Positions 1,376 through 19,559 of a stretch of DNA of 64,000 nt are shown here, piece by piece; position 1 is the stretch's first letter, and each line of letters opens with the position of its first letter. The notes beneath the pieces are model-generated. The model saw nothing but the letters and a program-made list of their open reading frames with translations, did no database searches and was not told where the DNA came from. Source of the DNA: Gammaproteobacteria bacterium (GTDB lineage Bacteria > Pseudomonadota > Gammaproteobacteria > GCA-001735895); assembly GCA_050291745.1 (NCBI GenBank), contig JBNKKI010000120.1:4397-68396 (forward strand), read 5' to 3'. The position numbers and the translations under genes were made by a program.

Positions 1376-1377
1376 AC

Positions 1378-3606: not shown

Positions 3607-4040
3607 CTCGCGATCCTCCGGTGAAAACGTGTCAGGTACTCCTCGACAAAACGGCAGGCGGCCTGCCGGTCCGAGCAGAAGTAGACGGGGACACCGAAGT
3701 CGACGACGATGGAGGCGACCGTTCCGATCAGCGCATGCGGGTGGGCATCGCTGCGGTAGCGGCCATCGACCAGATCGCGAAAGTTGCACTCGACAACCAC
3801 GCAGGCGGATTCGTAGGCGGAGAGCTTTTCCAGCTCGCGGTGAAACCGCTTTCGCCCCCGGATGACGGTGGAGACGAAATCCGTCAGGGATTTGCGCTCC
3901 ACCGCCACCCGTTCCTCAAGGCCGACCAGTGAGTAATCACCGGCGGGCAGCGCCTTGCGAACCGCCGAAACCTTGTCACTATCGAAGCTGTAGGGCTCCT
4001 GTTCGCGGGTGTCGACGACAACGGTGATCCGGTCCATCAT
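3558..4040 (-). CDS. ERCC4 (XPF/Mus81-type) nuclease-domain protein
   Basis: 160 aa containing VVVDTREQ...AGDY...ERKSLTDF, which fits the ERCC4 GDx(n)ERKx3D nuclease signature. The start overlaps the stop of the upstream gene (ATGA). The 3' end overlaps the predicted helicase start by about 49 nt. Confidence 0.5.
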   Translation of the reverse strand: MMDRITVVVDTREQEPYSFDSDKVSAVRKALPAGDYSLVGLEERVAVERKSLTDFVSTVIRGRKRFHRELEKLSAYESACVVVECNFRDLVDGRYRSDAHPHALIGTVASIVVDFGVPVYFCSDRQAACRFVEEYLTRFHRRIARCQKEMRVTRRDSGEE

Positions 4041-4513
4041 CAGAACGGGATCATGTCGTCCATCGCCGCGCCGGGAGCCCCGGCATCGTCGGCCATGACA
4101 ATGCGACGGTTGAAGTAGATGTTCTCGTTTTCACCGCGAGTGCGCTTGGTCACCTCCAGCCTGATGTTGAGAAGCTGCTCGAGGTGGCCCGGCAAGTCGG
4201 AGAGCTTCTGAAGCTGCAGCCCGCAGGTGTAGAGGTCCTGCTTGAGCCATTTGATGTTCTCGTTGCTGGCCATGACGTTGTTGCGCCAGAGAAGACGGCC
4301 CTTGTGGGTCGGCGCGAGAATGCGCAGGGTCCACTTGAGCATGGGATTGCCGGAGGTCTGGGCGCGGGTCAGTTCGACCCGGTCGACGTTGACCTGGTAC
4401 TTGCCGTCGGGGACGGCCTCGAACTCGCGTTCCTCGACTTCGGCGGTTTCAAAGGCGTCGTCGAACTGCGCCAGGTCGAGGTTGCTGTTGGATTGGTTTT
4501 CGTAGTGTTCCAT
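4040..4513 (-). CDS. Phage SSB-like / DUF669-like protein with an SSB-type acidic C-terminal tail
   Basis: 157 aa ending ...DDAGAPGAAMDDMIPF. The terminal acidic DDMIPF resembles the protein-interaction tail of bacterial SSB (DDDIPF). The gene lies immediately downstream of a Sak4-like gene, as in phage single-strand-annealing and recombination modules. Confidence 0.5.
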   Translation of the reverse strand: MEHYENQSNSNLDLAQFDDAFETAEVEEREFEAVPDGKYQVNVDRVELTRAQTSGNPMLKWTLRILAPTHKGRLLWRNNVMASNENIKWLKQDLYTCGLQLQKLSDLPGHLEQLLNIRLEVTKRTRGENENIYFNRRIVMADDAGAPGAAMDDMIPF

Positions 4514-4525
4514 GGTTGGATCTCC

Positions 4526-5296
4526 TTATTGTTGGGGTTTCGCCGTCGCACTCGCGGTCGGCTCCGGCTTCGGCCGGGCGGCACTCGCCGCAGCTCCGGC
4601 TGCCGTGTTGTTGAACGCTTTCATGAAGCTCGAAAAATCGAGGGGGATGACTTCGGGGAGTCGGCCGGTGCGGTCACCGGCGTCGTAGTTGGGACTGGGC
4701 TTGGTGCGCATCACGCGCTGCCAGACCGGCTTGCCGTCCTCGCCGGTTTTCATGTCCAGGTCGCAGAACAGGATCAGGTCCACCAGACCGGTGACCAGCT
4801 TCCGCGCCTTTTCCGGCAGCGTCGGCACGATGCGGGTGTGTTTGCCGGTCCGGGTCTCAATATCCCGCTCCTGGGAGTGGGAGATCAGGATCAGCCCATA
4901 GGGCAGGAAGGCGAGCTTGTTGATGACGCGCTGGAACTCGTTGTTGATCAGCGCGTAACCCTTGCCGTAGCCCAGGTCGGATTCGTGCTCGATCTTGAAT
5001 TTCTTGCAGACGTAGTCCGAGCACATCTTGTAGGCGTTATCCACCGTGTCGACGACGATGGTCTTGAACTCGTGCTTGCCCTCGGCGATTTCCGCGCAGG
5101 CCTGCAGAAGGTCGTCCCAGCAGGTGATCGGGGTCTGGAACACCTCCAGGGCGTTCAGACCCGGCTCGGTCGCCAGGAACAGTGCGTCATCGGCCTTGGA
5201 GCACCAGGTGCTCTTGCCGATCTTGCTCGGGCCGTACACCAGGGCGGTGAGGTCCGAGAGTGTGTGTTTGGGTTTGCTTTTGGTCTTGGGAAGCAT
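4526..5296 (-). CDS. Sak4-like (AAA_24 / RecA-fold) phage recombination ATPase
   Basis: 256 aa with a Walker A motif LVYGPSKIGKST near the N-terminus and a Walker B-like motif TIVVDTVDN. The size and the order (ATPase followed by an SSB-like gene) match Sak4 modules. Confidence 0.65.
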   Translation of the reverse strand: MLPKTKSKPKHTLSDLTALVYGPSKIGKSTWCSKADDALFLATEPGLNALEVFQTPITCWDDLLQACAEIAEGKHEFKTIVVDTVDNAYKMCSDYVCKKFKIEHESDLGYGKGYALINNEFQRVINKLAFLPYGLILISHSQERDIETRTGKHTRIVPTLPEKARKLVTGLVDLILFCDLDMKTGEDGKPVWQRVMRTKPSPNYDAGDRTGRLPEVIPLDFSSFMKAFNNTAAGAAASAARPKPEPTASATAKPQQ

Positions 5297-5322
5297 GGCT
5301 TCGTCTCCTTATGGTTGGGATT

Positions 5323-6339
5323 TCAAAACACCGGAGCGGCGTCTTCACCGGCTCCGTCCCGCAGCTCTTCGTGCGGGGCGATCCGTTGGAAATGGTTTTC
5401 GATGACGTTGGGGTTGCCGCCCGAGCGGCAGAGCTGGAAGTAGGCGCAGGGCCGTCCGTACTGGAAGCAGTAGCTGGTGTTGCGGTAGAAGGTGTCGCGC
5501 CGACGGGCGTCGAGCATGGCCTTGGAGAGTTCCCACAGCTCCGCCCGCAGTTCCTCGAACTGGTCGCGGGAGATGTAGAGCACCTCGCGGTGGAACATGC
5601 CCGGCTCGAGGTACTTCTCCTGAAGCCGCTGCTGGAAGGTGTCGTCGTCCTCCGGCAGCTTGCGCTTGGCGCTGCTCTTGCCGGTTTTCGACTTGGCGAT
5701 CAGCTCCGCCCGGCGGGCCTCGAATTCGGCTTCGGTTTCACCCTTGCCCTGGCGCAGCTTGGCCTTGACCAGGACGTTGTAGATGATGCCGCTGACCGTG
5801 ATGCCGAGGGTCTGCTCCAGGTACCAGGCGTAGAGGATGATCTGGAAGTCGGTCCACAGCCGTTCCAGGTAACTGGCGTCGATCTGTGAAGCGGTTTTGT
5901 GTTCCAGCAGGAAATACTGGCCATCTTGACGGACGATGCCGTCCACCTTTCCGGCGAGAATGAAACTGCGCGAGGTCGCGCCGGTCGCCGGGTTGACGAT
6001 GGGACCTTCGAAGGTCTTCTCGAGCGCGACGACCTCGAACGCTTCAGCCGGGTAGTGTTCCGCATAGGCGCTCATCATGGCTCGGGCGAGATGCCAGTCG
6101 GCCTGTTGATGATCGTCCTGCGCCCGGTTCGGATAGGTCCGGTCGATGTGGTCGAGGACCTTGGCCAGATCTCGCTCGCCGTGCCAGCACTCCAGGCAGT
6201 CGTGAATGACCGAGCCGAAGGCCAGATTGGGGTCGCGCTCGAGCGGCACCAGCTCGTCGATGTAGCGCCACTTGCAGGCCATGCGGCAGTTGCGGAACAG
6301 CCGCCACATGGAATAGGTGGTGGTCATCAGCTCGCTCAT
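5323..6339 (-). CDS. PD-(D/E)XK family exonuclease, Cas4/RecB-like, with a C-terminal Cys cluster
   Basis: 338 aa with a D...E.K-type core (GKVDGI..., YFLLEHKTAS) and a C-terminal cysteine cluster (CFQYGRPCAYFQLC), typical of Cas4/AddB-like iron-sulfur nucleases. Confidence 0.6.
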   Translation of the reverse strand: MSELMTTTYSMWRLFRNCRMACKWRYIDELVPLERDPNLAFGSVIHDCLECWHGERDLAKVLDHIDRTYPNRAQDDHQQADWHLARAMMSAYAEHYPAEAFEVVALEKTFEGPIVNPATGATSRSFILAGKVDGIVRQDGQYFLLEHKTASQIDASYLERLWTDFQIILYAWYLEQTLGITVSGIIYNVLVKAKLRQGKGETEAEFEARRAELIAKSKTGKSSAKRKLPEDDDTFQQRLQEKYLEPGMFHREVLYISRDQFEELRAELWELSKAMLDARRRDTFYRNTSYCFQYGRPCAYFQLCRSGGNPNVIENHFQRIAPHEELRDGAGEDAAPVF

Positions 6340-6674
6340 ACCGCCACCCCCGCTGTAGCGGCGGTGGGCGCTGCGCGATGCTTGGAGGCGCAGGCGCAGC
6401 CAGACGGCTGGGTTCGTTCGATCAGGACCGAGCGTTCGCCGTACTCCTTGGTGGCGAAACCGGTGAAGATGCGGGCGAGGTCGCTGCCGACATCGGTGGA
6501 GGCGTCGATCACGCAGGTGCGTCGGGCCTTGTCCAAATTGAACCGGCTCTCCATCCGCACACGGGAACGGCCATGCAGGCTTTCGACGGCCAGCATCGCC
6601 AGCATGAAAGTGTCTTCCAGTTCCTGGGCCGGGACCGACTCGTCAAAACGGTACTTGTAGGTGTCGTGAGTCAT
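6336..6674 (-). CDS. Hypothetical small protein (112 aa)
   Basis: The internal start MTHDTYKYRFDE at 6674 has AGGAG about 8 nt upstream. The longer 191-aa ORF (up to 6911) would overlap the sigma-factor gene and is rejected. The stop overlaps the exonuclease start (ATGA-type coupling). Confidence 0.4.
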   Translation of the reverse strand: MTHDTYKYRFDESVPAQELEDTFMLAMLAVESLHGRSRVRMESRFNLDKARRTCVIDASTDVGSDLARIFTGFATKEYGERSVLIERTQPSGCACASKHRAAPTAATAGVAV

Positions 6675-6778
6675 GGTTGAACTCCTCTTTTGTTCAGGTT
6701 CTGATTTCCGAGGCCCCGGATAGCCGCACCATGCGGCACGGTGCTTACTTACCGGAGCCGGGGCTGATGCGTCGGAGA

Positions 6779-7363
6779 TCACAGGTAGTCGGTCAGGCCA
6801 GCCTCGCTGAAAGCCTCCCGCAGCTTGCTCAGCCGGTCGTAGAGGGTGGTTCTGGGAATGCCCATCTCCCGGGCGATTTCGGCCATGGTGCTGTCGTGCA
6901 GGCGCACGCACAGATCCCGGAGCTCTTCCGGCAGCGAGGTGATGGCCCGGTCGAGATCCATGCGGATCTCATGGGCGAGAAGCTCCCTTGTCTCGCGGGT
7001 GCCGCTTCCCAGAGAGCCTTCGCTGTCCAGGAAGTCGATTCGCTCGGTGGTGTCGCCTTCACCGTTGTCGAGGGGTTCGTTGAGTGAGGTTTGGCAGAGC
7101 CGCCAGTCCCGGCATTGGGCGAACCGGGCCTCCAGAATGGTGGAGATGTGACGTTCGACGATCCGGGCCATGAAGGTGGTCTTCTTGGCCTTGGCGGGAT
7201 TGAAATGCCGCATCCGCTGCAGCAGATCGATCATCAGTTCCTGTTCGAGGTCGGGTCTGTCGTCCTCGGTGAATCCGGCTTTGCCTACGAGTTGACGTGC
7301 TTTGTGCCGAATGAGGTCGGCGGCATAATTGTCGATACCGTCGTAAGAATTCTGTGAAACCAT
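6779..7363 (-). CDS. Sigma-70 family (ECF-like) RNA polymerase sigma factor
   Basis: 194 aa with a region-2-like segment (DLIRHKARQLVGKAGFTEDDRPDLEQELMIDLLQRM) and a region-4 HTH (STMAEIAREMGIPRTTLYDRLSKLRE). GAGGAGG precedes the start. Confidence 0.65.
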   Translation of the reverse strand: MVSQNSYDGIDNYAADLIRHKARQLVGKAGFTEDDRPDLEQELMIDLLQRMRHFNPAKAKKTTFMARIVERHISTILEARFAQCRDWRLCQTSLNEPLDNGEGDTTERIDFLDSEGSLGSGTRETRELLAHEIRMDLDRAITSLPEELRDLCVRLHDSTMAEIAREMGIPRTTLYDRLSKLREAFSEAGLTDYL

Positions 7364-7558
7364 CGGGGCCTCCTCGGAGCGAGGAGGAGGTCCGCGTGGG
7401 TGTCGGCACGGGCCAGATCACAGGACAAAGCTGTCGCGTGGGCGAAGGGGTCGCAGGTACGCCGCCAATTGCCGTATTCGGCTCGGCGACACCCACAACA
7501 GCCTCCGCCATGCGTCCAGCTTGTTGTCCAGTGTCTAAGGGTTCAGGTCGTTACGTGT

Positions 7559-7885
7559 TCAGGCTGCCCGTTCCTCGATGCGCATCAGGAACGGGAGACC
7601 GTGCTTGATCTCGAGCAGGCAGACTTTTCCGCTGCCCATCTGCGCGAGGTGCTCCAGCAGCGCCACGACCTCTTGCTTGAGGATGAAGTCATCCTGGTCG
7701 CGCTCGGGCCGGGGACCACTCTGTCCGCCCAGCTTGATCTCGCGCTCGATGACCGTGTCAGGGGTGAGTTCCGGCTCGCCGTCGCGGACCGGAATGTTAG
7801 TGATGCGGCCGAAGTTGATGTCCTGCATCAGCTCGATGAGTCGCCGCTTCGGTGGGGTGAGGTGTGCTTTGTTGATTTGTGCCAC
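7559..7885 (-). CDS. Hypothetical protein (108 aa)
   Basis: Its GC3-rich codon usage is consistent with the island genes. It lies between the terminator of the QueC-like operon and the sigma-factor gene. No motif was recognised. Confidence 0.45.
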   Translation of the reverse strand: MAQINKAHLTPPKRRLIELMQDINFGRITNIPVRDGEPELTPDTVIEREIKLGGQSGPRPERDQDDFILKQEVVALLEHLAQMGSGKVCLLEIKHGLPFLMRIEERAA

Positions 7886-7942
7886 TGCCAGTCTCCTTGT
7901 TCGGAAGTTCTGGCACGCCCGGTGGCCAACCCTGTGCTGACC

Positions 7943-7995
7943 AATAAAAAACGCCGGATCGCGCCTTCATTGGGGAAGGCGCTACATCCGGCGTT
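7943..7995 (-). terminator. Rho-independent terminator downstream of the 700-aa QueC-like gene
   Basis: The minus strand reads aacgccggatgtagcgccttccccaatgaaggcgcgatccggcg followed by ttttttatt. This is a long GC stem (cgccggat/atccggcg, with inner gcgcctt/aaggcgc) followed by a U-run. Confidence 0.6.
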
Positions 7996-8058
7996 GCAAT
8001 GGCTACATTTGGCGTAGCGGAAATTTTTTTTAGTTTTTTCTTCCTGGGTGGTCCCGGG

Positions 8059-10161
8059 TCATTCGTTGACTATCGGGCGGACCTCCCAAACGATCTCCTC
8101 TTCGGTCCGGTAGACCGGTTCGTTGCCGCACTTGATGGACTCCTTCAAGTGGGCAGCCAGCGGCTTATCGTACTTCTCCAGATACTTGATGGCCCGGTTC
8201 ACGGCGTTCCGGAAGGCGTCGCGGATGTTCTTCCGTTTGTCGTTGGATTTCCGGAGTTTGCCACCCAGACCAACCGCCTCGTTGATTGCGGCTGTGATCT
8301 GGGTCATTTCGTCCTCAAGCCGCTGGATTTCGGCATCGTTGTTTTCTGCCCGGGCTTCTTCAATCTCTCGGAGAAGCTCGTGAGCCGTCTCCCGGTATTG
8401 CTCGACGGCCTTGCGGTCGGCAACGAAGCCGGTATCACCCAACGGAACCCCCTGGGTGACCTGAAAACCTTCGTCGGTTTCATTGGAGTTCAGGACCGCG
8501 TTGCAGCTATCGATGGCAAACCCGCAGACGATCTCGTAGACCGAGGTTTCTTTGTTGGGCCTCGCCAGGAGGAAGTTGATGTACTCGGCTCCTTTGTCGA
8601 CACCCGTCACGAGCACCTCGGCGTTGCCGTTAAAGCGTGCGGCCCAGACACCCCCGCGCTTCCTGAAATAGTTGTCCGGCTGCTTCTGCTCGACCGGAAT
8701 GGCGGGGACTGAGATCACCGATCCCGATTCATAGACCGTCCGAAGCAAGCAGTCTCCTGGCAAGGTGCGCTGGCGGATGGCCGTGATGTTGCGGGCGACC
8801 ATGGTGTCCATCGCTTCGCAGACCTCCTTGGCGTGGCGCTTGTAAAGGTCATAGACCTTCTGGGCCACGCTTCCGGGGTTCCCATTCAGGTAGCGGAAGA
8901 CCCGACTCACTTCGCTGAATCGAGCGATAAACTGGGTGATGTCATCCTGATCACGGACCTGGTTGGCACGCTCCAGATACGCGGCCGCCATGATTTTGTC
9001 TTCGTCCTTGCTTCGGCTTTGGGTGAAGATGTCGGCCTTGTAGGCATCGACAGGATCATATTGATCGGCCTTCGCCGCAATAACGGCAAAGCGCCGGTCG
9101 ATGCACTGCGAGCAGGTGCCGCAGTGGGTATGGTGATTGGTCATCTCCCAGGTGTGCGTGCAGGTGGTCGATGCCGCGATCATCTCCTGGCATCCGGCTT
9201 TGGTGATGACCCCGACGACGTCAGCCTTGGTTTTCCAGATGTAGGGATTTTCAATGGTGAATGGTTCGCCAGCCACCAGACTGATGATTTCCTGGAAGCC
9301 TCGGATTACCCTGGGATGGGTGGTGCGCGTTGCTCGGCCGCCGACGACCTGGGCGCAGACCGGCAGATTCAGACTGATGACGCCGTTCTCGTAGAATCGG
9401 ACGCTCTTCAGGTTGATCATTTTTGCGATGGTCGCCCCGATGGACACATAGAGGAAGGAGCGGCTCCGCTGGGTGTACTCGTAGTTCAGCCCCTTGTTCT
9501 TGTTGACGCGAACTCCGATGTGAAGGGGAGCGTTTTCACCGGCCTTGTCGGCAATCATCTTTTCCAGGCGGCGGTGGCGTTTATTGAGCTTCGGGGTTGA
9601 CTTGTGTGTCACCAGGACGACCCGGTGCTTTTCGTTCAACACCTCGTCGATAGCTCCTGCCAGCGAATCCAGCCCGCCTGAAAACATCACCACCTGTTCC
9701 GGATAACCGAGAAGACGCCCGTCATCGTTGAAGTCCAGATAGCCCTGGAATGCCTGAGCCTCTTTCAGCTTGGTGAATTCAAAGTGGTAGCTGTCATCAG
9801 ACAGGAACCCAAGCGTCGAGCACAGGGCCTGCTGAATCTCCTCACCATTCCAGAAGTCCGGGTTCCGGACCGGAATGATGAAATGCAGATTTCTCCGCCA
9901 ACCATGACCAAAGGAATCAACGTCATCGGCTCCACGGGGAATGGCCTGGTCGGCGCTGTACACGTAGGTGGCAATTTCGAGCAGATCCTGGAAGGAATCC
10001 GGCACGTCCTTGCTCATCTTTTTGTGGATGTCTTCGATGCGTAGGGTGATCTTGTCCGGCCCATCCTTGCCCCACAAACGCAGGCGCAAATCCCGATCCG
10101 GGTTCTCCTCGATTCCGCTGGTCGGTGCGTTTCCGCAGATGATGTAACGCTTATCTTGCAT
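8059..10161 (-). CDS. 700-aa three-domain protein: unknown N-terminal domain, QueC-like PP-loop ATPase core, and unknown C-terminal coiled-coil-rich domain
   Basis: It carries a PP-loop signature VVMFSGGLDSLAGAIDEVL (SGGxDS), and downstream a QueC-type zinc motif CTHTWEMTNHHTHCGTCSQCIDRRFA (C-x(n)-CGxCxxCxxR). Roughly 190 aa at the N-terminus and 280 aa at the C-terminus have no recognisable motif. The start overlaps the upstream gene by 11 nt (translational coupling). Confidence 0.7.
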   Translation of the reverse strand: MQDKRYIICGNAPTSGIEENPDRDLRLRLWGKDGPDKITLRIEDIHKKMSKDVPDSFQDLLEIATYVYSADQAIPRGADDVDSFGHGWRRNLHFIIPVRNPDFWNGEEIQQALCSTLGFLSDDSYHFEFTKLKEAQAFQGYLDFNDDGRLLGYPEQVVMFSGGLDSLAGAIDEVLNEKHRVVLVTHKSTPKLNKRHRRLEKMIADKAGENAPLHIGVRVNKNKGLNYEYTQRSRSFLYVSIGATIAKMINLKSVRFYENGVISLNLPVCAQVVGGRATRTTHPRVIRGFQEIISLVAGEPFTIENPYIWKTKADVVGVITKAGCQEMIAASTTCTHTWEMTNHHTHCGTCSQCIDRRFAVIAAKADQYDPVDAYKADIFTQSRSKDEDKIMAAAYLERANQVRDQDDITQFIARFSEVSRVFRYLNGNPGSVAQKVYDLYKRHAKEVCEAMDTMVARNITAIRQRTLPGDCLLRTVYESGSVISVPAIPVEQKQPDNYFRKRGGVWAARFNGNAEVLVTGVDKGAEYINFLLARPNKETSVYEIVCGFAIDSCNAVLNSNETDEGFQVTQGVPLGDTGFVADRKAVEQYRETAHELLREIEEARAENNDAEIQRLEDEMTQITAAINEAVGLGGKLRKSNDKRKNIRDAFRNAVNRAIKYLEKYDKPLAAHLKESIKCGNEPVYRTEEEIVWEVRPIVNE

Positions 10162-10939
10162 CGGCTCGCGCTCCTTCTTTCAATTCGTCCTTCATTTTCT
10201 TCAGCGCATAGGAGGCGAAGCCGTTGGACGACTCCCGGGAGATGTCACCGCCTTCTTCGTATTTGTGCTTGGAAAACCAATCCGCCGAAAACTGTTCGAC
10301 GATCAGGGATGCTTCTTTGCAGTGCGTGGTCAGGGCTTTCTCGAATTGTCCCATTTCATTCATGGTGGCAAAGCGCTGGCCTTCGCCCAGATGGGTCGCC
10401 AGCGTTTTTGACAGGAAATAATTCATGCTCTCGTTGGTCAGCTTGGCGAAGAACGTGCGGGACAACTCGCCGAACTCCCGTTTTTTCCCGAGCGACGCCA
10501 ATGCTGCCTGAACGTCACTGGCGTCTGGCGTAAACAAGGAAGGCAGCTTGGGAGAGATGTGTTCGACCAATGCTCCAACCAAGGCCCGCTGCGACATCTC
10601 ACCCAAGTCAGAGCGACTACCGTTGGACTCGAGCTTCCGATCCATTGCCTCTGCAACAGCGGCGGCTACGTCGGGCAATGAGGTGTCCTGTGGCAGATTG
10701 ATGCCTACCGACTGCAGGTGATCGTTGAAGTTGTCCTTCTTGGCGGCAATGGCAAGCTGGGTCATCAGCCATACCGCCTCGGTAAACCCCTCATCGTTGA
10801 GCACAAATGAGAAGGCCTTGTCAGCCGCCCGTATTGTGGCGTTTGCGATCTGGGACACGTCGGCACCGGCCGTGATCAGGCCGACCACCTCTTTCCATGC
10901 CCTCGACCTTGGAAGGCTCCCAAGTCTGACGTGCCCCAT
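10151..10939 (-). CDS. Hypothetical 262-aa all-helical protein, operon partner of the QueC-like protein
   Basis: Its codon usage is consistent with coding sequence. It lies 33 nt downstream of the wHTH gene and overlaps the QueC-like gene start. No catalytic motif was recognised. Confidence 0.55.
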   Translation of the reverse strand: MGHVRLGSLPRSRAWKEVVGLITAGADVSQIANATIRAADKAFSFVLNDEGFTEAVWLMTQLAIAAKKDNFNDHLQSVGINLPQDTSLPDVAAAVAEAMDRKLESNGSRSDLGEMSQRALVGALVEHISPKLPSLFTPDASDVQAALASLGKKREFGELSRTFFAKLTNESMNYFLSKTLATHLGEGQRFATMNEMGQFEKALTTHCKEASLIVEQFSADWFSKHKYEEGGDISRESSNGFASYALKKMKDELKEGARADAR

Positions 10940-10972
10940 GTCGATCTCCTTATTGTTCGCGACCCTGCATCG

Positions 10973-11206
10973 TTATTCGGGCCTCCTGATGACGACGATG
11001 CTTCGGGCCTTACGAGCTTCTTTCTTCAAATAGCCTTTACGGACCAGTTGAGCGATCTGCTCGTGGGCGCTCGCGTGACTGATACCGAGGACTTCCGACA
11101 ATTCTTTCACCGTTGGCGGCAACCCCTTTTCATCGATGATTTGGCAAATGACCCTCAGCGTCCTGGCCTGCGGGTCGGTTATTTCCGATAGCTTTTTCTT
11201 TCCCAT
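10973..11206 (-). CDS. Stand-alone LexA-like winged-helix DNA-binding protein (77 aa, no peptidase domain)
   Basis: The sequence MGKKKLSEITDPQARTLRVICQIIDEKGLPPTVKELSEVLGISHASAHEQIAQLVRKGYLKK resembles the LexA N-terminal DNA-binding domain (LexA has ...[32 protein letters not shown]). GGAG lies about 8 nt upstream of the ATG. Confidence 0.6.
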   Translation of the reverse strand: MGKKKLSEITDPQARTLRVICQIIDEKGLPPTVKELSEVLGISHASAHEQIAQLVRKGYLKKEARKARSIVVIRRPE

Positions 11207-11262
11207 GGCGATTGCTCCGTGTCATGGCCACTGAGCGGATTAGGCCCATCTTATGGTTAAAA

Positions 11263-11291
11263 AATATACGACCTGATGAATATCAGGTCAA
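11263..11291 (-). promoter_or_regulatory. Near-consensus sigma-70 promoter (TTGACC, 17-bp spacer, TATATT) with an embedded perfect palindrome GACCTGATgaatATCAGGTC (11270..11289), a putative operator
   Basis: The minus strand reads TTGACCtgatattcatcaggtcgTATATT, about 55 nt upstream of the wHTH start codon. The 8-4-8 perfect inverted repeat overlaps the -35 element and the spacer, which is the expected position for an autoregulatory operator. Confidence 0.55.
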
Positions 11292-11779
11292 TCAAAAAAA
11301 CAGGACTTTTCATCTGATTCCGTCATCTTGCACGTCCCTCCGGTAGGTAACGAACGCAAGTCCGGTTAAAGCCGGGCACAACCAGATAACCGACCAGAGG
11401 CGGAGCTGAGGCGGTTGTGGGTGCCATCGAACGCGCATCCCGACCCCCACCGTTTTCTGGCATCCACACCATCCAGTCCCCCGGTCCCACCGGAGGTGTT
11501 CGATGTTGGATGTACAGGAAATGAATGATGGGCCGGGGACGGATGACCTTGGCGAAAACGGCAAACCCGGCCGCCTGTCGGGTGAGGCGAGGCTCCAGTC
11601 AGCCGCCTCCATTCTGGCCACTGCGATCCTGCGCCGAAAGGCCAAAAAAGCATGTGGAGGCAGTGAGTTAGAGATTTTCGAAGATTCTTCCCCTGTGCTC
11701 AGAGAAGGACTTGATTCATTGCCGGAACAGAGCATTCATTCATGACAACTCGTCCGGAAACCAAAATAAGGAGTTGAAA

Positions 11780-12304
11780 ATGAATGAGTTACAAAATGCC
11801 GCCACGGGCGGCAAGAATCAGGACCGAACCCGAAACTCGGTCCTTCGGCAGATGGCCCTGCTGCAATCCATGTCCCTGGAGCAGCTCCGGGAAAAATGGC
11901 TCGACCTCTACGGCGAAGAGCCGCCCCAGTACAAGAAACAATTCCTCATCAAGCGGCTGGCCTATCGCATCCAGGAGCTTTTCTACGGTGGGCTGTCCGA
12001 GCAGACCAAGGTCCATCTCCAGCAGGCCGCCAAGGAGGACCCGGTCGCAACTGTCAATCGACGCATCCCAGAGGAGCGGAAATCAAACGAGGCGATCCTG
12101 CCCGGGACCAGACTGGTGCGGATATGGAACGACCGGCGCTATGAGGTGATCGTTCTTGCCGATGGCTACGAGTTCGAAGGCCGCACCTTCCGGTCGCTCA
12201 GCGCGGTGGCCAGGGAGATCACCGGGACGCGCTGGAACGGGAAAGTCTTTTTCGGACTGAAGAAGGTTTACGGCAGAAAAGCCGATGGAGGTTCGGATGC
12301 TTGA
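11780..12304 (+). CDS. DUF2924-like serine-recombinase accessory protein
   Basis: Translation starts at MNELQNAATGG (11780), after an AAGGAG Shine-Dalgarno sequence. The C-terminus (RLVRIWNDRRYEVIVLADGYEFEGRTFRSLSAVAREITGTRWNGKVFFGL) resembles the DUF2924 family that typically precedes large serine recombinases. The gene overlaps the recombinase start by 20 nt. Confidence 0.55.
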   Translation: MNELQNAATGGKNQDRTRNSVLRQMALLQSMSLEQLREKWLDLYGEEPPQYKKQFLIKRLAYRIQELFYGGLSEQTKVHLQQAAKEDPVATVNRRIPEERKSNEAILPGTRLVRIWNDRRYEVIVLADGYEFEGRTFRSLSAVAREITGTRWNGKVFFGLKKVYGRKADGGSDA

Positions 12305-13883
12305 TAACAGCAATGTCGCGCCGGGCAAAAACAAGACCCTGCGCTGTGCCATCTACACCCGCAAGAGCCACGAAGAAGGTCTCGAACAGGAGTTCAACTC
12401 GTTGGATGCGCAACGGGAATCGGCGGAACACTATATCGAAGCCCAGAGGATGCGTGGCTGGACGGCTCTGCCGGATCGCTACGACGATGGGGGTTTCTCG
12501 GGCGGGAACATGGAGCGTCCGGGGCTGCGCCGCCTGCTGGCGGACATCGACGCCGGGAAGATCGATGTGATCGTCGTCTACAAGGTCGACCGGCTGTCCC
12601 GCTCGCTGCTGGACTTCATGAAGATGATCGACCTCTTCAACGAGAAGGGTGTCAGCTTCGTCTCGGTCACCCAGCACTTCAGCACCACCGATCCCACCGG
12701 CCGGATGTTTCTCGGCATCCTGATCACCTTCGCCCAGTACGAGCGGGAGGTCATCGCCGAACGCATCCGGGACAAGGTGGCGGCTGCCAAGCGCCGGGGG
12801 AAATACTGCGGCGGCGTACCCATCCTCGGATACGACGTCAACCGGGACAACAAGAAGCTGCTGGTCAACCCAGATGAAGCCAGGACGGTGCAGTACATTT
12901 TCCGCCGGTTCATCCAGATCGGCTCGGCCAAGAAGCTGGGCCAGGAATTGAACGAACAGGGTTACCGCACCAAGGCCTGGACCACCAAGAAAGGCAAGGT
13001 GCGCGAGGGCTCCGAATGGAACACCGCCCACATCTATCGACTGCTAAACAACCGGATCTATATCGGCGAGATCGCCCACAAGGACCGCAGCTACCCCGGT
13101 GAGCACGAAGGGATTATCGACCGGGCGACCTGGGACAAGGTTCAGGCCATCCTGGAGGACAACAAACCGGTCAAGGTTTCCATGGCCAGAACCAAAATGG
13201 TCGCCCCGCTGAAAGGCGTCATCCGATGCGGCCACTGCGGATGCGCGATGGGACCGACCTACGCCCGCAAGAACGGCCGCCACTACACCTATTACATCTG
13301 CCAGAAAGACAGCAAGCGGACCGTGAGCCGGTGCCCGCTCAAACGGATTCCCGCCGGGGACATCGAGCAGGCGGTAATCGAGCAGTTGAGCGCGGTGTTT
13401 CGCACACCGACGCTGGTGGCCAAGACTTACTTCGCGGCCCGGGACATCGAGCAGGCAGAGCGGGAGCGGTTGTTCAAGCAGAAAGCCCAGCTCGAGATGG
13501 AGCTGTCGCAGGCACGGGAGCAGGCACTTGAACTGATGAAACCTGGCAACGATCAGCCGGGCAAGACCGAGATGCTGACTACGGTCAATCGCCAGGCGGT
13601 CGAGCTCACGAAACAACTGACCCATGTGAGCGAGCGATGCAGAGCCTACCAGGGGAACAGCATCACGGAGCAGGATGTGTCGGAGGCCTTCCAGAATGTC
13701 GAGGGCTTCTGGGAAGATCTTTTCCCGGTGGAGCGAAACCGGCTCATCCGCCTCCTGGTGGATAAGGTCGAGATCCGCGAGACCGGAATTGACATGGAGC
13801 TGCGCACCAACGGGCTGACAACGCTCATCGCCGAGCTGGCTGGTCTGGCATGCGAAGTCACCGAACGGAGGGCAAGCCGATGA
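12285..13883 (+). CDS. Large serine recombinase (integrase): resolvase catalytic domain, recombinase domain and zinc ribbon
   Basis: The N-terminal resolvase domain reads LRCAIYTRKSHEEGLEQEFNSLDAQRESAEHYIEAQ...IDVIVVYKVDRLSRSLLDFMKMIDLFNEKGVSFVSVTQ (Ser nucleophile in YTRKS). A recombinase domain and a zinc ribbon (RCGHCGCAMGPTYARKNGRHYTYYICQ...RCPLKRIPA) follow, then a C-terminal coiled-coil. The length is 532 aa. Confidence 0.85.
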   Translation: MEVRMLDNSNVAPGKNKTLRCAIYTRKSHEEGLEQEFNSLDAQRESAEHYIEAQRMRGWTALPDRYDDGGFSGGNMERPGLRRLLADIDAGKIDVIVVYKVDRLSRSLLDFMKMIDLFNEKGVSFVSVTQHFSTTDPTGRMFLGILITFAQYEREVIAERIRDKVAAAKRRGKYCGGVPILGYDVNRDNKKLLVNPDEARTVQYIFRRFIQIGSAKKLGQELNEQGYRTKAWTTKKGKVREGSEWNTAHIYRLLNNRIYIGEIAHKDRSYPGEHEGIIDRATWDKVQAILEDNKPVKVSMARTKMVAPLKGVIRCGHCGCAMGPTYARKNGRHYTYYICQKDSKRTVSRCPLKRIPAGDIEQAVIEQLSAVFRTPTLVAKTYFAARDIEQAERERLFKQKAQLEMELSQAREQALELMKPGNDQPGKTEMLTTVNRQAVELTKQLTHVSERCRAYQGNSITEQDVSEAFQNVEGFWEDLFPVERNRLIRLLVDKVEIRETGIDMELRTNGLTTLIAELAGLACEVTERRASR

Positions 13884-14302
13884 AAATGAAGCCGACCATT
13901 ACCGTTGCCGACAACGGCAACCTGCAGATCCACATCCCGATGCTGATCCGGCGCATGCGCGGCCGCAAGACGGTCATCGCTCCCCAGGCCCTGGATGGAG
14001 AAATCACCGGAGCGCAGGAACCGGTGCAGTCTGCCATCCTCCAGGCGCTGGGAAGAGCCTTTTCCTGGGCCGACATCCTCGAATCCGGCCAGATCAAGTC
14101 CATCAGCGAGCTTGCCCGTACCCTTGACGTCGATGGCTCGTATGTGGCCCGCATTCTCAAGCTGACGACCCTGGCCCCCGACATCATCGAAGCCCTGATC
14201 AACGGCGAGGAACCCAACGGGCTCTCGCTGGCCAAGCTGACCCAGACCTTCCCCGAGGACTGGGCCGAGCAGCGCAGCCAGTTCGGCTTCGCCACCGACT
14301 GA
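13880..14302 (+). CDS. HTH-containing hypothetical protein, the third gene of the recombinase module
   Basis: The start MKMKPTITV overlaps the recombinase stop (ATGA). A putative HTH is SISELARTLDVDGSYVARILKLTTL. A terminator follows. Confidence 0.5.
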   Translation: MKMKPTITVADNGNLQIHIPMLIRRMRGRKTVIAPQALDGEITGAQEPVQSAILQALGRAFSWADILESGQIKSISELARTLDVDGSYVARILKLTTLAPDIIEALINGEEPNGLSLAKLTQTFPEDWAEQRSQFGFATD

Positions 14303-14327
14303 CGACCGGACCGGAGACCACCAAAGA

Positions 14328-14354
14328 GAGCCGACCATCAGCGTCGGCTTTTTT
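14328..14354 (+). terminator. Rho-independent terminator after the recombinase module
   Basis: A gccgac-catcagc-gtcggc hairpin is followed by tttttt. Confidence 0.55.
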
Positions 14355-14665
14355 ACTTTAGGGGGCAGGAAGCCGGAGTTGACCGCGCTTCTTTTCGTGG
14401 CCGAGGCGGGCGATTTCGAAAAAAACGTCCGGTTGCGGCATCGAACGATGACCTAAGACAACCGCCCAAAATGGCAATCAGCCGCAAACCCATATCAATC
14501 AAGGATGTAGCTTTCCGGACGCGCTTCGGACTTCGTCCGGAGAAAACAGAGAATCAGGGGCCAAACAGAGAAAGAAAGGCGGGAGGATGGGGAGAATCGA
14601 TGGTGCGGAGAGGTGCTTTGGAAAGATATGAAACGGGCGCAAACCCTTTAGAAACAAGGGGAAAA

Positions 14666-14721
14666 AGAAAACCCGCCTACCCAGAGAATCACTCTGGAGA
14701 GACGGGTTGTCTTTTTTTAAA
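14666..14721 (-). terminator. Putative ssrA terminator (bidirectional hairpin) immediately downstream of the tmRNA CCA end
   Basis: The minus strand reads ...CCAtttaaaaaaagacaacccgtctctccagagtgattctctgggtaggcgggttttctttttcc. It contains the stem aacccgtct/aggcgggtt with a nested ccagag/ctctgg hairpin, then a U-rich tract. On the plus strand the same hairpin is followed by T7. Confidence 0.45.
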
Positions 14722-15097
14722 TGGTGGAGACGGGGGGAATCGAACCCCCGTCCGCCAGTCCTCTGCCATTGGCTCTACATGTTTATTCTGAACTTTAATT
14801 TAACTGCTTGCTACCCGTCAGACTAAGAAAACAATCAGCGATTTCGGTACTTTTTTAGTGCTTCGGCCCCGAACAAGCTTCCATCACGATTCTATGAGAG
14901 CGATGCCTGAATGTTCCCGAAGGAACCTGGACGCATAGACACGGCTCCAGTCAGACAGCATTCTACCGGTTATTAAGCGGCGAGTGCGTAGTTGTCGTCG
15001 TTTGCAACTATATATTTGCAGAAGATTTAACGAGTTTTTCTACATTCTCGACATGCACCTCAGGTTTCAATACCAACGTCGAAGCCGAGTCGTCCCC
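14722..15097 (-). ncRNA. ssrA: tmRNA (SsrA), about 376 nt, tag peptide ANDDNYALAA
   Basis: The minus strand begins GGGGACGACTCGGCTTCGACG... (compare E. coli GGGGCTGATTCTGGATTCGACG). It contains the tag reading frame GCAAACGACGACAACTACGCACTCGCCGCTTAATAA, giving ANDDNYALAA then two stops (plus-strand coordinates 14970..15005). It ends ...GGACGGGGGTTCGATTCCCCCCGTCTCCACCA at 14722. Confidence 0.9.
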
Positions 15098-15278
15098 AGA
15101 GATTCGATAGTATAATCCATTTATCTGGATTTATACTACCATTTACGCAATATTTGACAGTTTCTTGCTGTTTTAGTTCTGATATTGTTGCTGATGAATG
15201 GTGCTTTCCGTTATTATTCCGCTCGCTATTATTAAGCCTTTGCACCTTTGCCATTCATCTTACTTATTAATCTATCCC

Positions 15279-18200
15279 ATGATCTGTATAAAAGGTAGTC
15301 CTGCTTTATCTGATTTTAGAATTCAGAAACTTTTAAGTGCCGTTAAACCTTTCGGCGTAATTCAAATAACCAGTCATTATATTCATTTTATTGAAACTCT
15401 TCATGAGCTTGCTGATGATCAGCTTTCAATTGTGAAAAATCTGTTGCAATACGGGCCTAAGCTCAAGGATCGGCAGCTTGATGGCGAAACTTTTTATGCT
15501 GTGCCTCGTGTGGGTACGATTTCTCCCTGGTCTACCAAAGCGACTGATATTGCCCATATCTGTGGGCTACAGGATATTGCTCGTATCGAGAGAGGCATTG
15601 AATATAAAGTTCAATTCGACAGTGATGTTTCTTCTGTATCTCAATCTGTTGAACAGGTAAAACTGTTGTTACACGATAAAATGGTTGAACAGGTTTTTAA
15701 TACTGTCGATGAATGTGAAGCATTATTCGATCATCACCAACCCAAACCTTTGACTGTTGTCGATATTTTACAGGGTGGTAAACCACAACTTGAAGCCGCT
15801 AATATTGAATTAGGCCTGGCTTTATCTGATGATGAAATCGATTATCTGGTGGATAGTTATGTCGGTCTTCAACGTAATCCTAGCGATGTGGAGTTGATGA
15901 TGTTTGCGCAGGCGAATTCTGAGCATTGTCGCCATAAAGTGTTTAATGCGGACTGGACTATTGATGGGGAGGATATGGATGCGTCGCTATTTGGCATGAT
16001 TAAGAATACTTACAAAATGCATTCTGAGGGTATTCTGTCTGCCTATCATGATAATTCTGCCGTTATTGAAGGTTTTCCTGCTCATCGATTTGCACCACAG
16101 CTTGAATCAGGCATTTATCAGGATGATATGACACGTCTGGATATTTTGATGAAAGTTGAAACCCATAACCATCCAACTGCAATTTCTCCTTTTCCCGGAG
16201 CTGCTACCGGTTCCGGTGGTGAAATTCGTGATGAAGGGGCAACAGGCAGGGGATCTAAACCTAAAGCTGGATTGTGCGGATTTTCTGTTTCCAATTTGAA
16301 TTTACCTGAACTTTCTCAACCCTGGGAAAAGGATTATGGTAAACCTGACCGTATTGTTTCAGCACTGGATATTATGATTGAAGGGCCGTTGGGTGCTGCG
16401 GCTTTTAATAATGAATTTGGCCGTCCTAATATCTGTGGATATTTTCGTACTTACCAGCAAACCATAAAAACCAGAGATGGAGAAGAAGTTCGTGGCTATC
16501 ATAAACCAATTATGCTGGCTGGCGGCGTAGGTTCTATCAAGCCGGAGCATATTGATAAACTCGAAATTCCTGCTGGTAGTAATATTATTGTGCTGGGTGG
16601 GCCAGCGATGTTGATTGGTCTGGGTGGTGGTGCGGCTTCTTCTATGACCAGTGGCAGTAGCTCGGAAAATCTTGATTTTGCTTCTGTGCAACGCGGTAAT
16701 CCGGAAATGGAACGTCGGGTGCAGGAAGTTATAGATCGTTGTTTTGCACAATCTGAAAATAATCCAATCATTTCTATCCACGATGTTGGGGCCGGTGGTT
16801 TGTCAAATGCATTACCTGAACTGGTGAATGACTGTGGCATGGGTGCGCAACTTGATTTGCGTAAAATACCTAATGATGAACCGGGTATGTCTCCCAGAGA
16901 AATCTGGTGTAATGAAAGTCAGGAACGTTATGTACTTGCTGTTTCTGATGAGAGACTGGATGATTTTATTCAATTATGTAATCGCGAAAGATGCCCTTAT
17001 GCGGTTCTCGGTAAAGCGACCGATGAAAAGCAGTTAGTCGTATCTGATGAAGTATTTGGTAATAATCCGGTTGATATGCCGTTGGATATTTTGCTTGGTA
17101 AACCCCCTAAAATGCACCGTGATGTGCAACATCAGCAAGTTGTTCAGGATGTTTTTGATACTTCCTCTATCGATATCAAAGAAGCTATTCATCGGGTTTT
17201 ACAAAATCCGACTGTGGCAGATAAAACTTTTTTAATTACGATTGGTGACCGCTCAGTAGGTGGTTTGATTGCCCGTGATCAAATGGTTGGCCCGTGGCAG
17301 GTTCCGGTGGCAGATGTTGCAGTCACGCTGACTGATTTTGAAGGTTATACCGGTGAAGCCATGAGTATGGGAGAAAGAACACCACTGGCTTTACTGGATG
17401 CACCTGCTTCTGGACGTATGGCGATTGGCGAAGCTTTAACTAATCTTGCAGCCAGTTACACCAGAGATTTATCTCGTGTTGTCCTGTCGGCTAACTGGAT
17501 GGCAGCGGCGGGTCATGAAGGTGAAGATGCCCGTTTATTTGATACCGTAAAAACGGTGGGTATGGAAGTCTGTCCACAACTGGGAATTACCATTCCAGTA
17601 GGTAAAGATTCTCTATCGATGAAAACAGTGTGGCAGTCTGAGGGTGAAAATAAATCTGTTACCGGCCCGCTATCTTTAATCATATCTGCTTTTGCACCTG
17701 TTTATGATGTGCGTAAGTCAGTAACTGCTGAACTTTCAGCTGATCAGGATAGTGCTTTATTTTTATTTGATCTAGGACAGGGTAAGAATCGCCTGGGCGC
17801 ATCTGTACTGGCGCAGGTTTACTCTCAAATCGGTCAACAGGGACCGGATATGGATGATGTGGCCGTATTTCATAATTTCTATCTGGCAGTACAGGAAATG
17901 CTGGAAAATGATTATTTACTGGCTTATCACGATCGTTCTGATGGCGGTCTTATTGCCACACTTTGTGAAATGGCTTTTGCCGGTAGAAGCGGATTAACTG
18001 TTGATCTGAAAGAACTGGGGTCAAACCCTGCTGAAGCTTTGTTTAATGAAGAACTGGGAGCCGTTATTCAGGTTGCTAACAATCATATTGAAGGTCTCAA
18101 GCTCATTATCGATAAATTTAATTTGAATCATTGTGTTCACCAGATCGGTCAACTCAATGATTCAGATGAAGTCATTGTTTTAAATAATGATGAAAAAATC

Positions 18201-19166
18201 TTTAGTGAATCTATAAGCAGTCTGAGACGCAGTTGGTCGTTGACGACCTATCACATGCAAAAGCTACGTGATAATCCTGACTGCGCTAAAGAGGAATATG
18301 ATTCCATTCTGGAAAATGCTAAACCATCTTTATTTTCCGAATTAACTTACCAGACGGATGAAGACCCGGCTGCTCCCTATATTAATAGTGGTGCAAAACC
18401 TCGCATTGCGGTACTTAGAGAACAGGGTGTTAATGGGCAGGTAGAAATGGCAGCCGCTTTTACTAAGGCAGGTTTTGAAGCGGTTGACGTGCATATGAGT
18501 GATTTACTTAATGGGCAGACTGACTTACAGGATTTCCGTGGAATTGCAGCCTGTGGCGGATTTTCCTATGGAGATGTACTGGGAGCCGGTGAAGGCTGGG
18601 CCAAATCTATTCTTTATAATAGTAAAGCTTACGATATGTTTTCTGCCTTCTTTGATCGATCTGACAGTTTTGGTTTAGGGGTTTGTAATGGCTGCCAGAT
18701 GTTGTCAAATTTGCATAGTATTATTCCCGGTGCAGACAAATGGCCGCATTTTGTTAGAAATAAATCAGAGCAATATGAAGCCAGAGTATCCATGGTTGAA
18801 ATAATGCAATCAGATTCAATATTTTTTCAGGGAATGCAGGGTTCCAGAATGCCTATCGTAGTCGCTCATGGAGAAGGGCAGGTTGAATTCAGAACTGAAA
18901 ATGCCGCACAGTTACTACAGGATCAAACCGCTTGTGTACGTTTTATCGATCGAAATAGTCAGCCTACTGAAATATATCCTGCTAACCCCAATGGTTCTTC
19001 TGAAGGGCTTACGGGCTTTACCAGTAGCAATGGAAGATTCACTATCATGATGCCACATCCGGAAAGAGTTTTTCGTGCTGTTCAAAACTCATGGCAGGCT
19101 AGTGATTGGGGTGAAGATAGCCCGTGGATGCGTATGTTCAGGAATGCCCGAGTCTGGGTTGATTAA
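15279..19166 (+). CDS. purL: Phosphoribosylformylglycinamidine synthase (single-chain large PurL)
   Basis: The start [19 protein letters not shown] matches the E. coli PurL N-terminus ([20 protein letters not shown]), and the length of about 1295 aa is that of the single-chain FGAM synthase family. The upstream 27 codons of the listed ORF are rejected. Confidence 0.9.
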
Positions 19167-19559
19167 ACCTGGAAAATATTTTCAGCCATACAGTGGCTTA
19201 CTGTATGGCTGCATTATAACTCTGTATCAGGGAAGCACTGATCAATTCATGATTTTGTTGGCTTTAAAAACTTCATTCTGCTTGAAGATTACTGCACTGG
19301 ATGACTTATAGTCTCCAGCTCACTACGCAAAAAATATCACATTTCTACTAATGCATGAGCTCAGTGCAAGCCAGTCACTATTATCCCAAACCGGAATCAA
19401 TCAGGTAGATGTTCCCTAAGCTAATTCCTGAGCATTAGTCAAAAAATGGTATAAATTTAATTGATGTAGCAAATAAGGCTTGACTATATTAGTATTTGCT
19501 AATATATTGCTTCACATCGAATTTAACTTTATTTTTTTACTTTTTTGAGAACTTTAATT

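Follow-up and report, generated by a model that had tools for sequence, protein, structure and literature searches.

Introduction

In the anti-phage system Qat, QatB and QatC form a 1:1 complex that is sufficient against some phages and in which the N-terminus of QatB lies in the active site of QatC (PMC13279940, PMC13639016). QatBC alone defends against lambda-vir (PMC13279940), and the PP-loop and Gly2 of QatB are both essential (PMC13279940, PMC13639016). Canonical QatB has about 260-300 amino acids (aa) and is all-alpha; its gene lies just upstream of qatC, and the protein starts with a conserved MGTS motif that contains the essential Gly2 (PMC13279940). In a survey of the family PF06508, ~34% of the genes in the QatC cluster had qatA or qatD nearby (PMC13329287), and seven "forms" of the qat operon are listed in another paper. 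A ligation to an N-terminal glycine is known from the type IV cyclic-oligonucleotide-based antiphage signalling system (CBASS), in which Cap9 joins 7-carboxy-7-deazaguanine to its partner, at Gly2 of the cGAS/DncV-like nucleotidyltransferase (CD-NTase) (10.1101/2025.04.06.647259). For Qat itself, four structural papers of 2026 did not reconstitute the QatB-QatC reaction and leave unexplained how phages are stopped. Here we analyse a three-gene operon in a stretch of 64,000 nucleotides (nt) of gammaproteobacterial DNA (contig JBNKKI010000120.1, positions 4,397 to 68,396; in the following, the window), which encodes a small DNA-binding protein, a 262-aa helical protein and a 700-aa protein with a QueC-like core. 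The best explanation for this operon is a prophage-carried relative of Qat that combines a QatB-QatC-type core with a transcriptional switch of its own.

Results

A QatC-like enzyme with one added module

Judged by its sequence, the 700-aa protein is a full-length QatC homologue (residues 1 to ~465) with one extra module at its C-terminus. The operon to which it belongs has the following parts.

8059..10161, reverse strand: gene for the 700-aa QatC-like protein, from the list of open reading frames (ORFs)
8767..10161, reverse strand: QatC-homologous part of this gene (residues 1 to ~465 of the protein), comprising an N-terminal extension, a QueC-like core with PP-loop and zinc site, and a C-terminal extension
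8059..8706, reverse strand: C-terminal module of the same protein (residues ~486-700 and the stop codon), from the profile search
10151..10939, reverse strand: gene for the 262-aa partner protein (B262), in the qatB position, from the ORF list
10973..11206, reverse strand: gene for the 77-aa winged helix-turn-helix (wHTH) protein, a putative autorepressor (PF01726)
11263..11291, reverse strand: sigma-70-type promoter TTGACC-17-TATATT, agreeing with the consensus at 10 of 12 positions in a consensus scan
11270..11289, reverse strand: palindrome GACCTGAT-ATTC-ATCAGGTC, a putative operator that reaches from the -35 to the -10 hexamer, read from the sequence
~7943..7995, reverse strand: intrinsic terminator, a two-tier hairpin followed by U6 (UUUUUU), from RNA folding

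The QatC model of PADLOC matches residues 53-396 of the 700-aa protein with an E-value of 2.2e-53, and the NCBIfam QatC model (NF041925) matches residues 50-396 with 3.6e-61. The chains of solved QatC structures are likewise recovered (9vlk, 4e-30; 9zee, 2e-20). In an alignment of the protein with six canonical QatC sequences from annotated qatABCD plasmid loci (A5), the C-terminus of canonical QatC is reached at about residue 460, with a conserved KRxxxEV, and the extensions flanking the core of QatC on its N- and C-terminal sides are thus both present (model match 50-396, alignment to ~460). The original prediction had described a QueC core sandwiched between two unrecognisable domains, in an operon that matches no known QueC-containing system. 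The matches to QatC models and structures, together with the reach of the alignment, argue for QatC plus one module instead of a QueC core between two unknowns, and with E-values of 2e-53 and 4e-61 for the QatC models and of 4e-30 for solved QatC, the supposed lack of a match has to be given up. As for the flanking domains, the ~190 aa at the N-terminus and the ~100 aa that follow the zinc motif turn out to be the extensions of QatC, and it is the last ~215 aa, without a match in Pfam or the PDB, to which the description still applies.

The QueC-like core had been deduced from a PP-loop and a zinc motif, and both are borne out in the alignment. The PP-loop SGGLDS (residues 161-166) is invariant in A5 and aligns with that of solved QatC, and the zinc cysteines C334, C347, C350 and C353 (CGTCSQCIDRR) are invariant together with R356-R357; the zinc motif, too, aligns with solved QatC. 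The first zinc spacing is C-x12-C in the 700-aa protein, as against C-x19-C in E. coli QatC (PMC13329287). Also invariant in A5 are D59, D71/R76/W88/R90, R232/R234, E258-N259-G260, T278-R279-T280-T281-H282-P283 and N305-P306...T311-K312, and this holds for all residues that have been listed as QatC-specific or essential (PMC13329287, PMC13279940), including those of the motifs D..R..WxR, RxRxxxF/Y, ExG, TRTTHP and P(x)4TK. Thr278 and Thr280 replace the Tyr/Asp pair with which QueC and Cap9 read 7-carboxy-7-deazaguanine, as is the case in QatC. Models of QueC proper give weak and partial matches: PF06508 is hit at 4e-9 over positions 134-205 of 210, which is its last third, and TIGR00364 (QueC) scores 30.3 bits against a cut-off of 150.3. 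In public databases the homologues are called "7-cyano-7-deazaguanine synthase" or "hypothetical", and the first of these names is a mislabelling of the family.

A helical partner with an invariant N-terminus

The gene for the 262-aa protein shares 11 nt with the start of the enzyme gene. An AAGGAG box stands ahead of the ATG of the downstream, 700-aa gene, and a second AAGGAG lies 7 nt ahead of the ATG of the 262-aa gene. The 262-aa protein had no match in Pfam, PADLOC, NCBIfam or the sequences of the PDB, and fold searches with it returned nothing specific. A word-indexed search yielded 374 homologues, of which every named one is "hypothetical". The protein had been expected to be all-helical, and so is the AlphaFold2 model, built from a 29-sequence alignment, with 11 helices (mean predicted local distance difference test, pLDDT, 75; predicted template modelling score, pTM, 0.75). 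Its core is confident from about residue 50 onwards, and the first ~50 residues have a pLDDT of 45-67.

For the comparison of related loci we used 73 loci from a scan of one genome per species and 16 viral contigs from IMG/VR, 89 in all. Conservation of the 262-aa protein is highest at its N-terminus: ten of the 43 invariant columns fall into the first 26 residues, and M1, G2, H3, L6, G7, L9 and W15 (an LGxLP...W motif) are invariant in the family. Every one of the 81 loci with an intact 5' end encodes the start MGH (ATG-GGN-CAY), down to 40% identity, while Gly2 of the neighbouring wHTH protein, which serves as an internal control, varies. The motif is MGH here and MGTS in QatB, with the position of Gly2 shared.

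Searches aimed at QatB itself were negative. An NCBIfam scan at E<=0.01, in which the presence of a QatB model is inferred from PGAP product names, returned nothing for the 262-aa protein; among 29 members of the family, none matched the PADLOC QatB model at E<=10; hhalign gave a probability of 0.4% for homology with QatB; and a QatB hidden Markov model (HMM) built from canonical loci had no hit in the window or the 89 loci. The PADLOC candidate PDC-M05B matches four members of the family weakly (best E 0.0014), and the enzyme has no match to that system. Because of its qatB-like position, its size, its predicted all-alpha fold and its Met-Gly start, we treat the 262-aa protein as an analogue of QatB in position and function, which may be either a very divergent homologue or a replacement. 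The proposal that it is the substrate or partner of the enzyme gains support from the invariant Met-Gly start and from the position of its gene.

Promoter, operator and putative repressor

All three genes are co-directional (8059..11206, reverse strand). TTGACC-17-TATATT is the only good sigma-70 match of the region, and its spacer is spanned by the 20-bp palindrome, as would be expected from the near-consensus promoter with embedded operator that had been read from the sequence. At the other end, the terminator hairpin folds with -33.8 kcal/mol (z = -6.1; 0 of 200 shuffled sequences equally stable) ahead of the U6 tract, and the operon is indeed closed by a strong terminator.

The operator consensus TGACCTGAT-N4-ATCAGGTCA is kept in nearly all loci that have the wHTH gene. 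Furthermore, the combined promoter and operator, TTGACCTGAT-N4-ATCAGGTCA-TATATT, hardly varies, even between loci whose proteins share ~66% identity and whose intergenic flanks are unrelated. Such conservation across divergent loci supports autorepression by the wHTH protein, which we regard as a putative palindrome-binding autorepressor. The LexA box of the E. coli type is CTGT-N8-ACAG; the core of the operator, CTG-N8-CAG (11270..11289, reverse strand), is 2 bp shorter, yet similar.

The stand-alone LexA-like DNA-binding protein that had been placed ahead of the operon is present there. The 77-aa protein matches PF01726, the LexA DNA-binding domain, at 4.7e-13 over positions 3-64. TIGR00498 (lexA) matches residues 3-69 only, with 45 bits against a cut-off of 111, and the C-terminal S24 autopeptidase is absent, which places the protein outside LexA proper. 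Its gene occupies the same position in 64 of the 89 related loci. Its N-terminus reads MGK in this clade and MSK in other clades, so that Gly2 is not conserved, and the idea that the wHTH protein might be a second glycine substrate was discarded on account of MSK.

Distribution of the cassette

The 73 loci from the species scan come from Desulfobacterota, Pseudomonadota (alpha, beta and gamma), Acidobacteriota, Planctomycetota, Verrucomicrobiota, Hydrogenedentota, Lentisphaerota and others, about ten bacterial phyla in all, with the reservation that some assignments are based on metagenome-assembled genomes (MAGs) and may be binning errors. Recurrence of the pair near integrases, which had been proposed as a check, is found: the QatC-like gene lies directly downstream of the partner gene in 83 of the 89 loci, and in 57 a DUF2924 gene and a large serine recombinase are nearby. 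The six loci lacking the enzyme are contig ends or decayed fragments; in one of them (L079) the 3' part of the partner gene stands at the start of the contig and no enzyme gene follows. The C-terminal module was detected in 77 loci.

Three loci are informative with respect to context. In L001 (CP011257 / GCA_001628775.1) the three genes stand alone between housekeeping genes, an arrangement from which the cassette can be taken to be autonomous, and the earlier description of a compact autonomous cargo operon near a recombinase is confirmed. Two loci from Planctomycetota, both without the wHTH gene, lie in defence-island-type contexts: in L070 (3267-9954) the pair comes directly after a complete type I restriction-modification system and a YgjP-like peptidase, and in L071 (553-9895) it directly follows a cluster of SNF2 helicase, DUF1156 and DUF499 genes.

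The usual partners of QueC-like enzymes had been reported as absent, and canonical qat genes just outside the region had been named beforehand as a finding that would refute the proposal. No such genes were found: with a threshold of E<=0.01, HMMs for QatA, QatB and QatD, each built from 5-8 sequences of canonical plasmid loci, retrieved nothing from the 64-kb window or from the 89 loci, which were taken with up to 10 kb of flank. Likewise, no CD-NTase, Cap10/tRNA-guanine transglycosylase (TGT), DpdA or effector was seen among the window ORFs scanned with Pfam or PADLOC, and no CD-NTase or Cap10/TGT among the called neighbours in L001-L005. A search of a phage collection at the DNA level with the operon found nothing.

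Some loci with QatC-like genes are unusual in other ways. At L106 (6001-6816) a QatC-like copy is cut down to its C-terminal 271 aa and lies beside transposase genes of the insertion sequence (IS) type (rve, TnpB_IS66), which suggests decay of the system by IS insertion. Divergent QatC-like genes are found on a plasmid of Rhizobium sp. WL3, together with genes for a 190-aa hypothetical protein, an XRE protein and DNA-binding proteins (L007, 4193-7936), and on a Rhodococcus plasmid with a TatD hydrolase only (L104); an archaeal copy lies among hypothetical proteins on a Natrinema plasmid (L105). More Qat-like variants thus probably exist. A general rule of Met-Gly partners cannot be claimed for these divergent plasmid loci; the one upstream protein translated among them, in L007, starts with MTDG as annotated.

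The C-terminal module

The part of the enzyme that extends beyond QatC comprises about 215-235 aa and is made up of a small beta/alpha unit, a coiled coil, a basic helix and a terminal hairpin. A HMMER search with residues 451-700 retrieved 6046 representative clusters (at 50% identity) at E<=1e-3 and 1035 at E<=1e-10. Among the 113 full-module matches within the best 150 hits, the module nearly always ends a few residues from the C-terminus of the protein, and the parts ahead of it measure from 0 to ~940 aa. Its consensus starts with N-x-F-R-x-x-G-x-x-W-x-x-R-F-x-G ... G-A-x-Y-I-x-x-L-L-x-x-P, continues with a variable linker and the coiled coil, and ends with G-L-G-G-R-x-R...R-x-R-x-x-V-x-N-A-I-x-R-A-I...L-A-x-H-L...G-x-x-P-x-Y-x-P...W; the conserved helix is strongly basic.

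Pfam scans of 77 module-bearing proteins identified a QueC-like N-terminal partner in 19, AAA_16 with TPR (STAND type) in three, and a sigma-54 AAA+ domain, a response-regulator receiver (REC), an adenylate/guanylate cyclase and a CBS domain in one each. A Hel308-like helicase (P0292), from a separate scan outside these 77, is a seventh type of partner, and many further N-terminal partners are without annotation (module-bearing proteins P0241-P0389). For the module as such, neither Pfam nor NCBIfam gave a significant match; Foldseek with the AlphaFold2 model (pLDDT 66) found nothing significant in the PDB, the module profile retrieved coiled-coil noise only from PDB sequences, and a word-indexed homologue search with the profile gave mainly fragments, without informative names.

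The place of the module is the one at which regulators of the receiver, sigma-54 and STAND-TPR types normally carry a DNA-binding output domain. Because of this position and the strongly basic helix, the module is, by analogy, most likely a nucleic-acid-binding or target-recognition unit. A more specific assignment, as a split winged helix of the OmpR/PhoB type with a coiled-coil insertion, was tried and rejected: with the insertion spliced out there was no Trans_reg_C match in Pfam, and hhalign against PhoB and OmpR sequences paired the expected helices, but with a probability of 0.9%.

The module also occurs in a related prophage, the PD-(D/E)XK nuclease of which shares 67% identity with the one next to our operon. 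There, the equivalent slot holds a different operon encoding proteins of 143, 408 and 435 aa, the last of which carries the same module (41% identity, E 2e-46) behind an unrelated N-terminal half; its two partners start with MSR (143 aa) and MNY (408 aa), neither of them Met-Gly. Alternative operons in this slot are seen at L108 (381-3339), L109, L110 and L111 (3881-6314), with proteins of 143, 408 and 435 aa or of 377 and 437 aa, all unannotated; here, too, the last protein bears the module behind an N-terminal half of other origin. A different operon with the same module in the equivalent slot suggests that this slot takes variable cargo in the phage family, and that the module may be a constant element that couples the systems to a trigger or a target.

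The host prophage

Positions 1..14790 of the window make up a prophage-like element that has inserted into the 3' end of ssrA, the gene for transfer-messenger RNA (14722..15097, reverse strand): homology to related elements ends at ~14750-14790, inside that 3' end, and the element has ~60% G+C compared with ~40% in the rest of the window. A DUF2924 gene (11711..12304) and a large serine recombinase gene (12285..13883) adjoin the operon on its right, in keeping with the predicted integrase-proximal position on a mobile island. On its left lie early genes of phage type, encoding a sigma-like protein, a PD-(D/E)XK nuclease, AAA_24, DUF669, ERCC4 and a RecD2-like helicase. The operon is thus insulated cargo at the recombinase end of the prophage.

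Two small neighbours may be early regulators of the prophage. A 194-aa protein (6779..7363, reverse strand) has weak matches to regions 2 and 4 of sigma-70 and accompanies the operon in 29 of the 89 loci; a 108-aa protein (7559..7885, reverse strand) has no family match and accompanies it in 33. Elements that are 91-97% identical at the nucleotide level turn up in genomes placed in Verrucomicrobiota, Desulfobulbus, Geobacteraceae, Desulfosarcina and Hydrogenedentales as well as in IMG/VR contigs, an unusually broad apparent host range to which binning errors in some of the MAG assignments may contribute. The host flank begins with purL (15198..19166, forward strand), encoding phosphoribosylformylglycinamidine (FGAM) synthase, and the ORF at 19545..20045 (forward strand) weakly matches a sulphur globule protein, below threshold (E 1.4e-4), a hint that the host may oxidise sulphur.

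Discussion

On balance, we favour the reading that the operon is a self-contained, autorepressed defence module of the QatBC type whose enzyme modifies Gly2 of its partner. This is based on the homology of the enzyme with its intact active site, the strict linkage of the two genes, the conserved operator, the terminator, and the occurrence in prophages and in contexts of the defence-island type. In such a module, the wHTH protein would sit on the spacer palindrome and keep the operon low and autoregulated in the lysogen. By analogy with Qat and Cap9, the QatC-like part may bind ATP at the SGGLDS PP-loop, activate a carboxylate substrate and, once Met1 has been removed from the co-translated 262-aa partner, move it onto the free alpha-amine of that protein's Gly2. 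The fused ~215-aa module might stand in for the missing QatA and QatD, most likely as a DNA-binding or target-sensing output, and the modified or activated complex would then block superinfecting phages, such that the lysogen is protected.

Several points weigh against this reading. The score of the enzyme with NF041925 (207.2 bits) is below the equivalog cut-off of 280 bits, and the basic patch with which QatC binds QatB is not visibly conserved in A5. The helices of the 262-aa model begin at residue 6, its first 50 residues are not modelled as coil, and a disordered tail like that of QatB (30-90 aa) is absent. The putative role of the module is drawn from an analogy of architecture, and its winged-helix assignment failed statistically. 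The canonical chemistry of QatC has not been reconstituted (PMC13279940, PMC13639016), and the location in a prophage would also fit a phage-regulatory or counter-defence role.

The last point leads to the alternative that survives best, though we hold it to be unlikely, namely a regulatory or lifestyle module of the prophage, or one related to counter-defence. Here, the C-terminal module would be a DNA-binding output, and the 700-aa protein, with its enzyme domain and the partner as the gate, would govern the maintenance or induction of lysogeny by way of the early operon next to it (108-aa protein, sigma-like protein, PD-(D/E)XK nuclease and AAA_24). The cassette does have the recombinase module on one side and the early genes for replication and recombination on the other, and its direction of transcription is that of the latter; the module elsewhere sits on signalling inputs (REC, sigma-54 AAA+, AAA_16-TPR, cyclase, CBS) in the place of a DNA-binding domain, and the related prophage with the 67% identical nuclease has a module-ending protein in the same slot. 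However, with its own consensus promoter, repressor and strong terminator the cassette is insulated from the early genes, and it also occurs without any prophage in L001 and beside restriction-modification systems. Moreover, DNA binding by the module is drawn by analogy, and the closest characterised relatives, QatBC, are defence proteins.

Second, and likewise improbable, the system may be defensive with the 262-aa protein acting as an effector, adaptor or inhibitor, such that the enzyme would modify the N-terminus of a phage protein, a nucleic acid or a small molecule. That the protein shows no homology to QatB and has no long flexible tail would fit this possibility, as would a fused module that could recruit another target; the chemistry of QatC is unresolved in the canonical system as well (PMC13279940, PMC13639016). 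Against this, the invariance of MGH and LGxLP...W in 81 loci is hard to explain unless the N-terminus is functionally read, and gene overlap and strict co-occurrence parallel the pairs QatB-QatC and CD-NTase-Cap9. Finally, an ordinary 7-cyano-7-deazaguanine synthase or a part of a Dpd-like pathway of DNA deazaguanine modification, for which the annotation of the homologues and the PF06508 match at 4e-9 might speak, is hardly credible, since just the last third of the QueC profile matches, TIGR00364 reaches 30 of the 150 bits needed, Thr278 and Thr280 stand at the substrate positions of QueC as in QatC (PMC13279940), E. coli QatC fails to complement a queC deletion (PMC13329287), and no que, TGT or DpdA family was seen among the neighbouring ORFs scanned.

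If the operon is, as we favour, a QatBC-type defence module, the question arises what its extra module contributes. One tentative idea, which we would call possible but doubtful, is that it represents an undescribed, widespread C-terminal output domain that turns the QatC-type enzyme into a one-polypeptide sensor-enzyme replacing QatA and QatD, with the module, and not the enzyme, providing the coupling to the trigger or target.

As to novelty, the structural and functional papers on Qat considered here, the PF06508 survey and the paper on deazaguanylation in CBASS contain no QatC of ~700 aa, nor this partner family or this regulator. The original prediction of a minimal, possibly undescribed QueC-based defence system therefore stands as far as an undescribed variant is concerned. 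It does not stand as the claim of a wholly new system: with QatB and QatC defending alone and about one third of QatC-cluster genes near qatA or qatD, a "minimal" system is a variant of a known theme (PMC13279940, PMC13329287), and we regard the operon as an undescribed variant of a known defence system. The family amounts to a natural experiment on Qat, in which the active site of QatC has been kept, QatA and QatD are gone, and an unrelated partner with an invariant N-terminal glycine and an extra domain are found. If active, it would reveal what the Qat core cannot do without, reconstitution may be easier than before, and there would be a first functional handle on a very common, unannotated C-terminal module.

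With canonical QueC, the enzyme shares the PP-loop SGGxDS, the four-cysteine zinc site and the Rossmann-like core. It differs in that the substrate motifs are absent, the profile match is partial, and phage and recombinase genes instead of que genes are its neighbours. The likeness to Cap9 and type IV CBASS is that of a QueC-family, ATP-dependent enzyme with an N-terminal-glycine partner, and the proposed chemistry would be the same in kind. However, Cap9 is a minimal QueC of ~185 aa that keeps the Tyr/Asp pair, whereas Thr/Thr and the QatC extensions are found here, and the scanned ORFs of the window include no CD-NTase, Cap10/TGT or effector.

In its regulation the operon resembles cassettes of the BrxR or CapH type. 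Such regulators are small wHTH/HTH repressors of autoregulated defence cassettes, and here, too, a small DNA-binding protein is encoded first and a palindromic operator lies over the promoter of the (putative) defence genes. In contrast to these cassettes, the regulator is a bare LexA-type N-terminal domain without a WYL or peptidase partner.

The closest comparison is with qatABCD (Gao et al. 2020; structures 9vlk and 9zee; PMC13279940, PMC13376578, PMC13639016). In contrast to that system, the loci of this operon have no qatA (KAP NTPase) or qatD (TatD nuclease) nearby; the partner is without detectable homology to QatB, starts with MGH and not MGTS, and has no long disordered tail; the enzyme carries an extra ~215-aa C-terminal module and scores under the NCBIfam cut-off for QatC; and a dedicated wHTH repressor with its operator and carriage by a prophage have been added. 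What the two have in common is an enzyme that is homologous over the whole length of QatC, with all signature and catalytic residues, and a partner of ~260 aa, predicted to be all-helical, encoded directly upstream with a gene overlap and starting with Met-Gly, and hence a two-protein core of the kind that in Qat is known to be sufficient for some defence.

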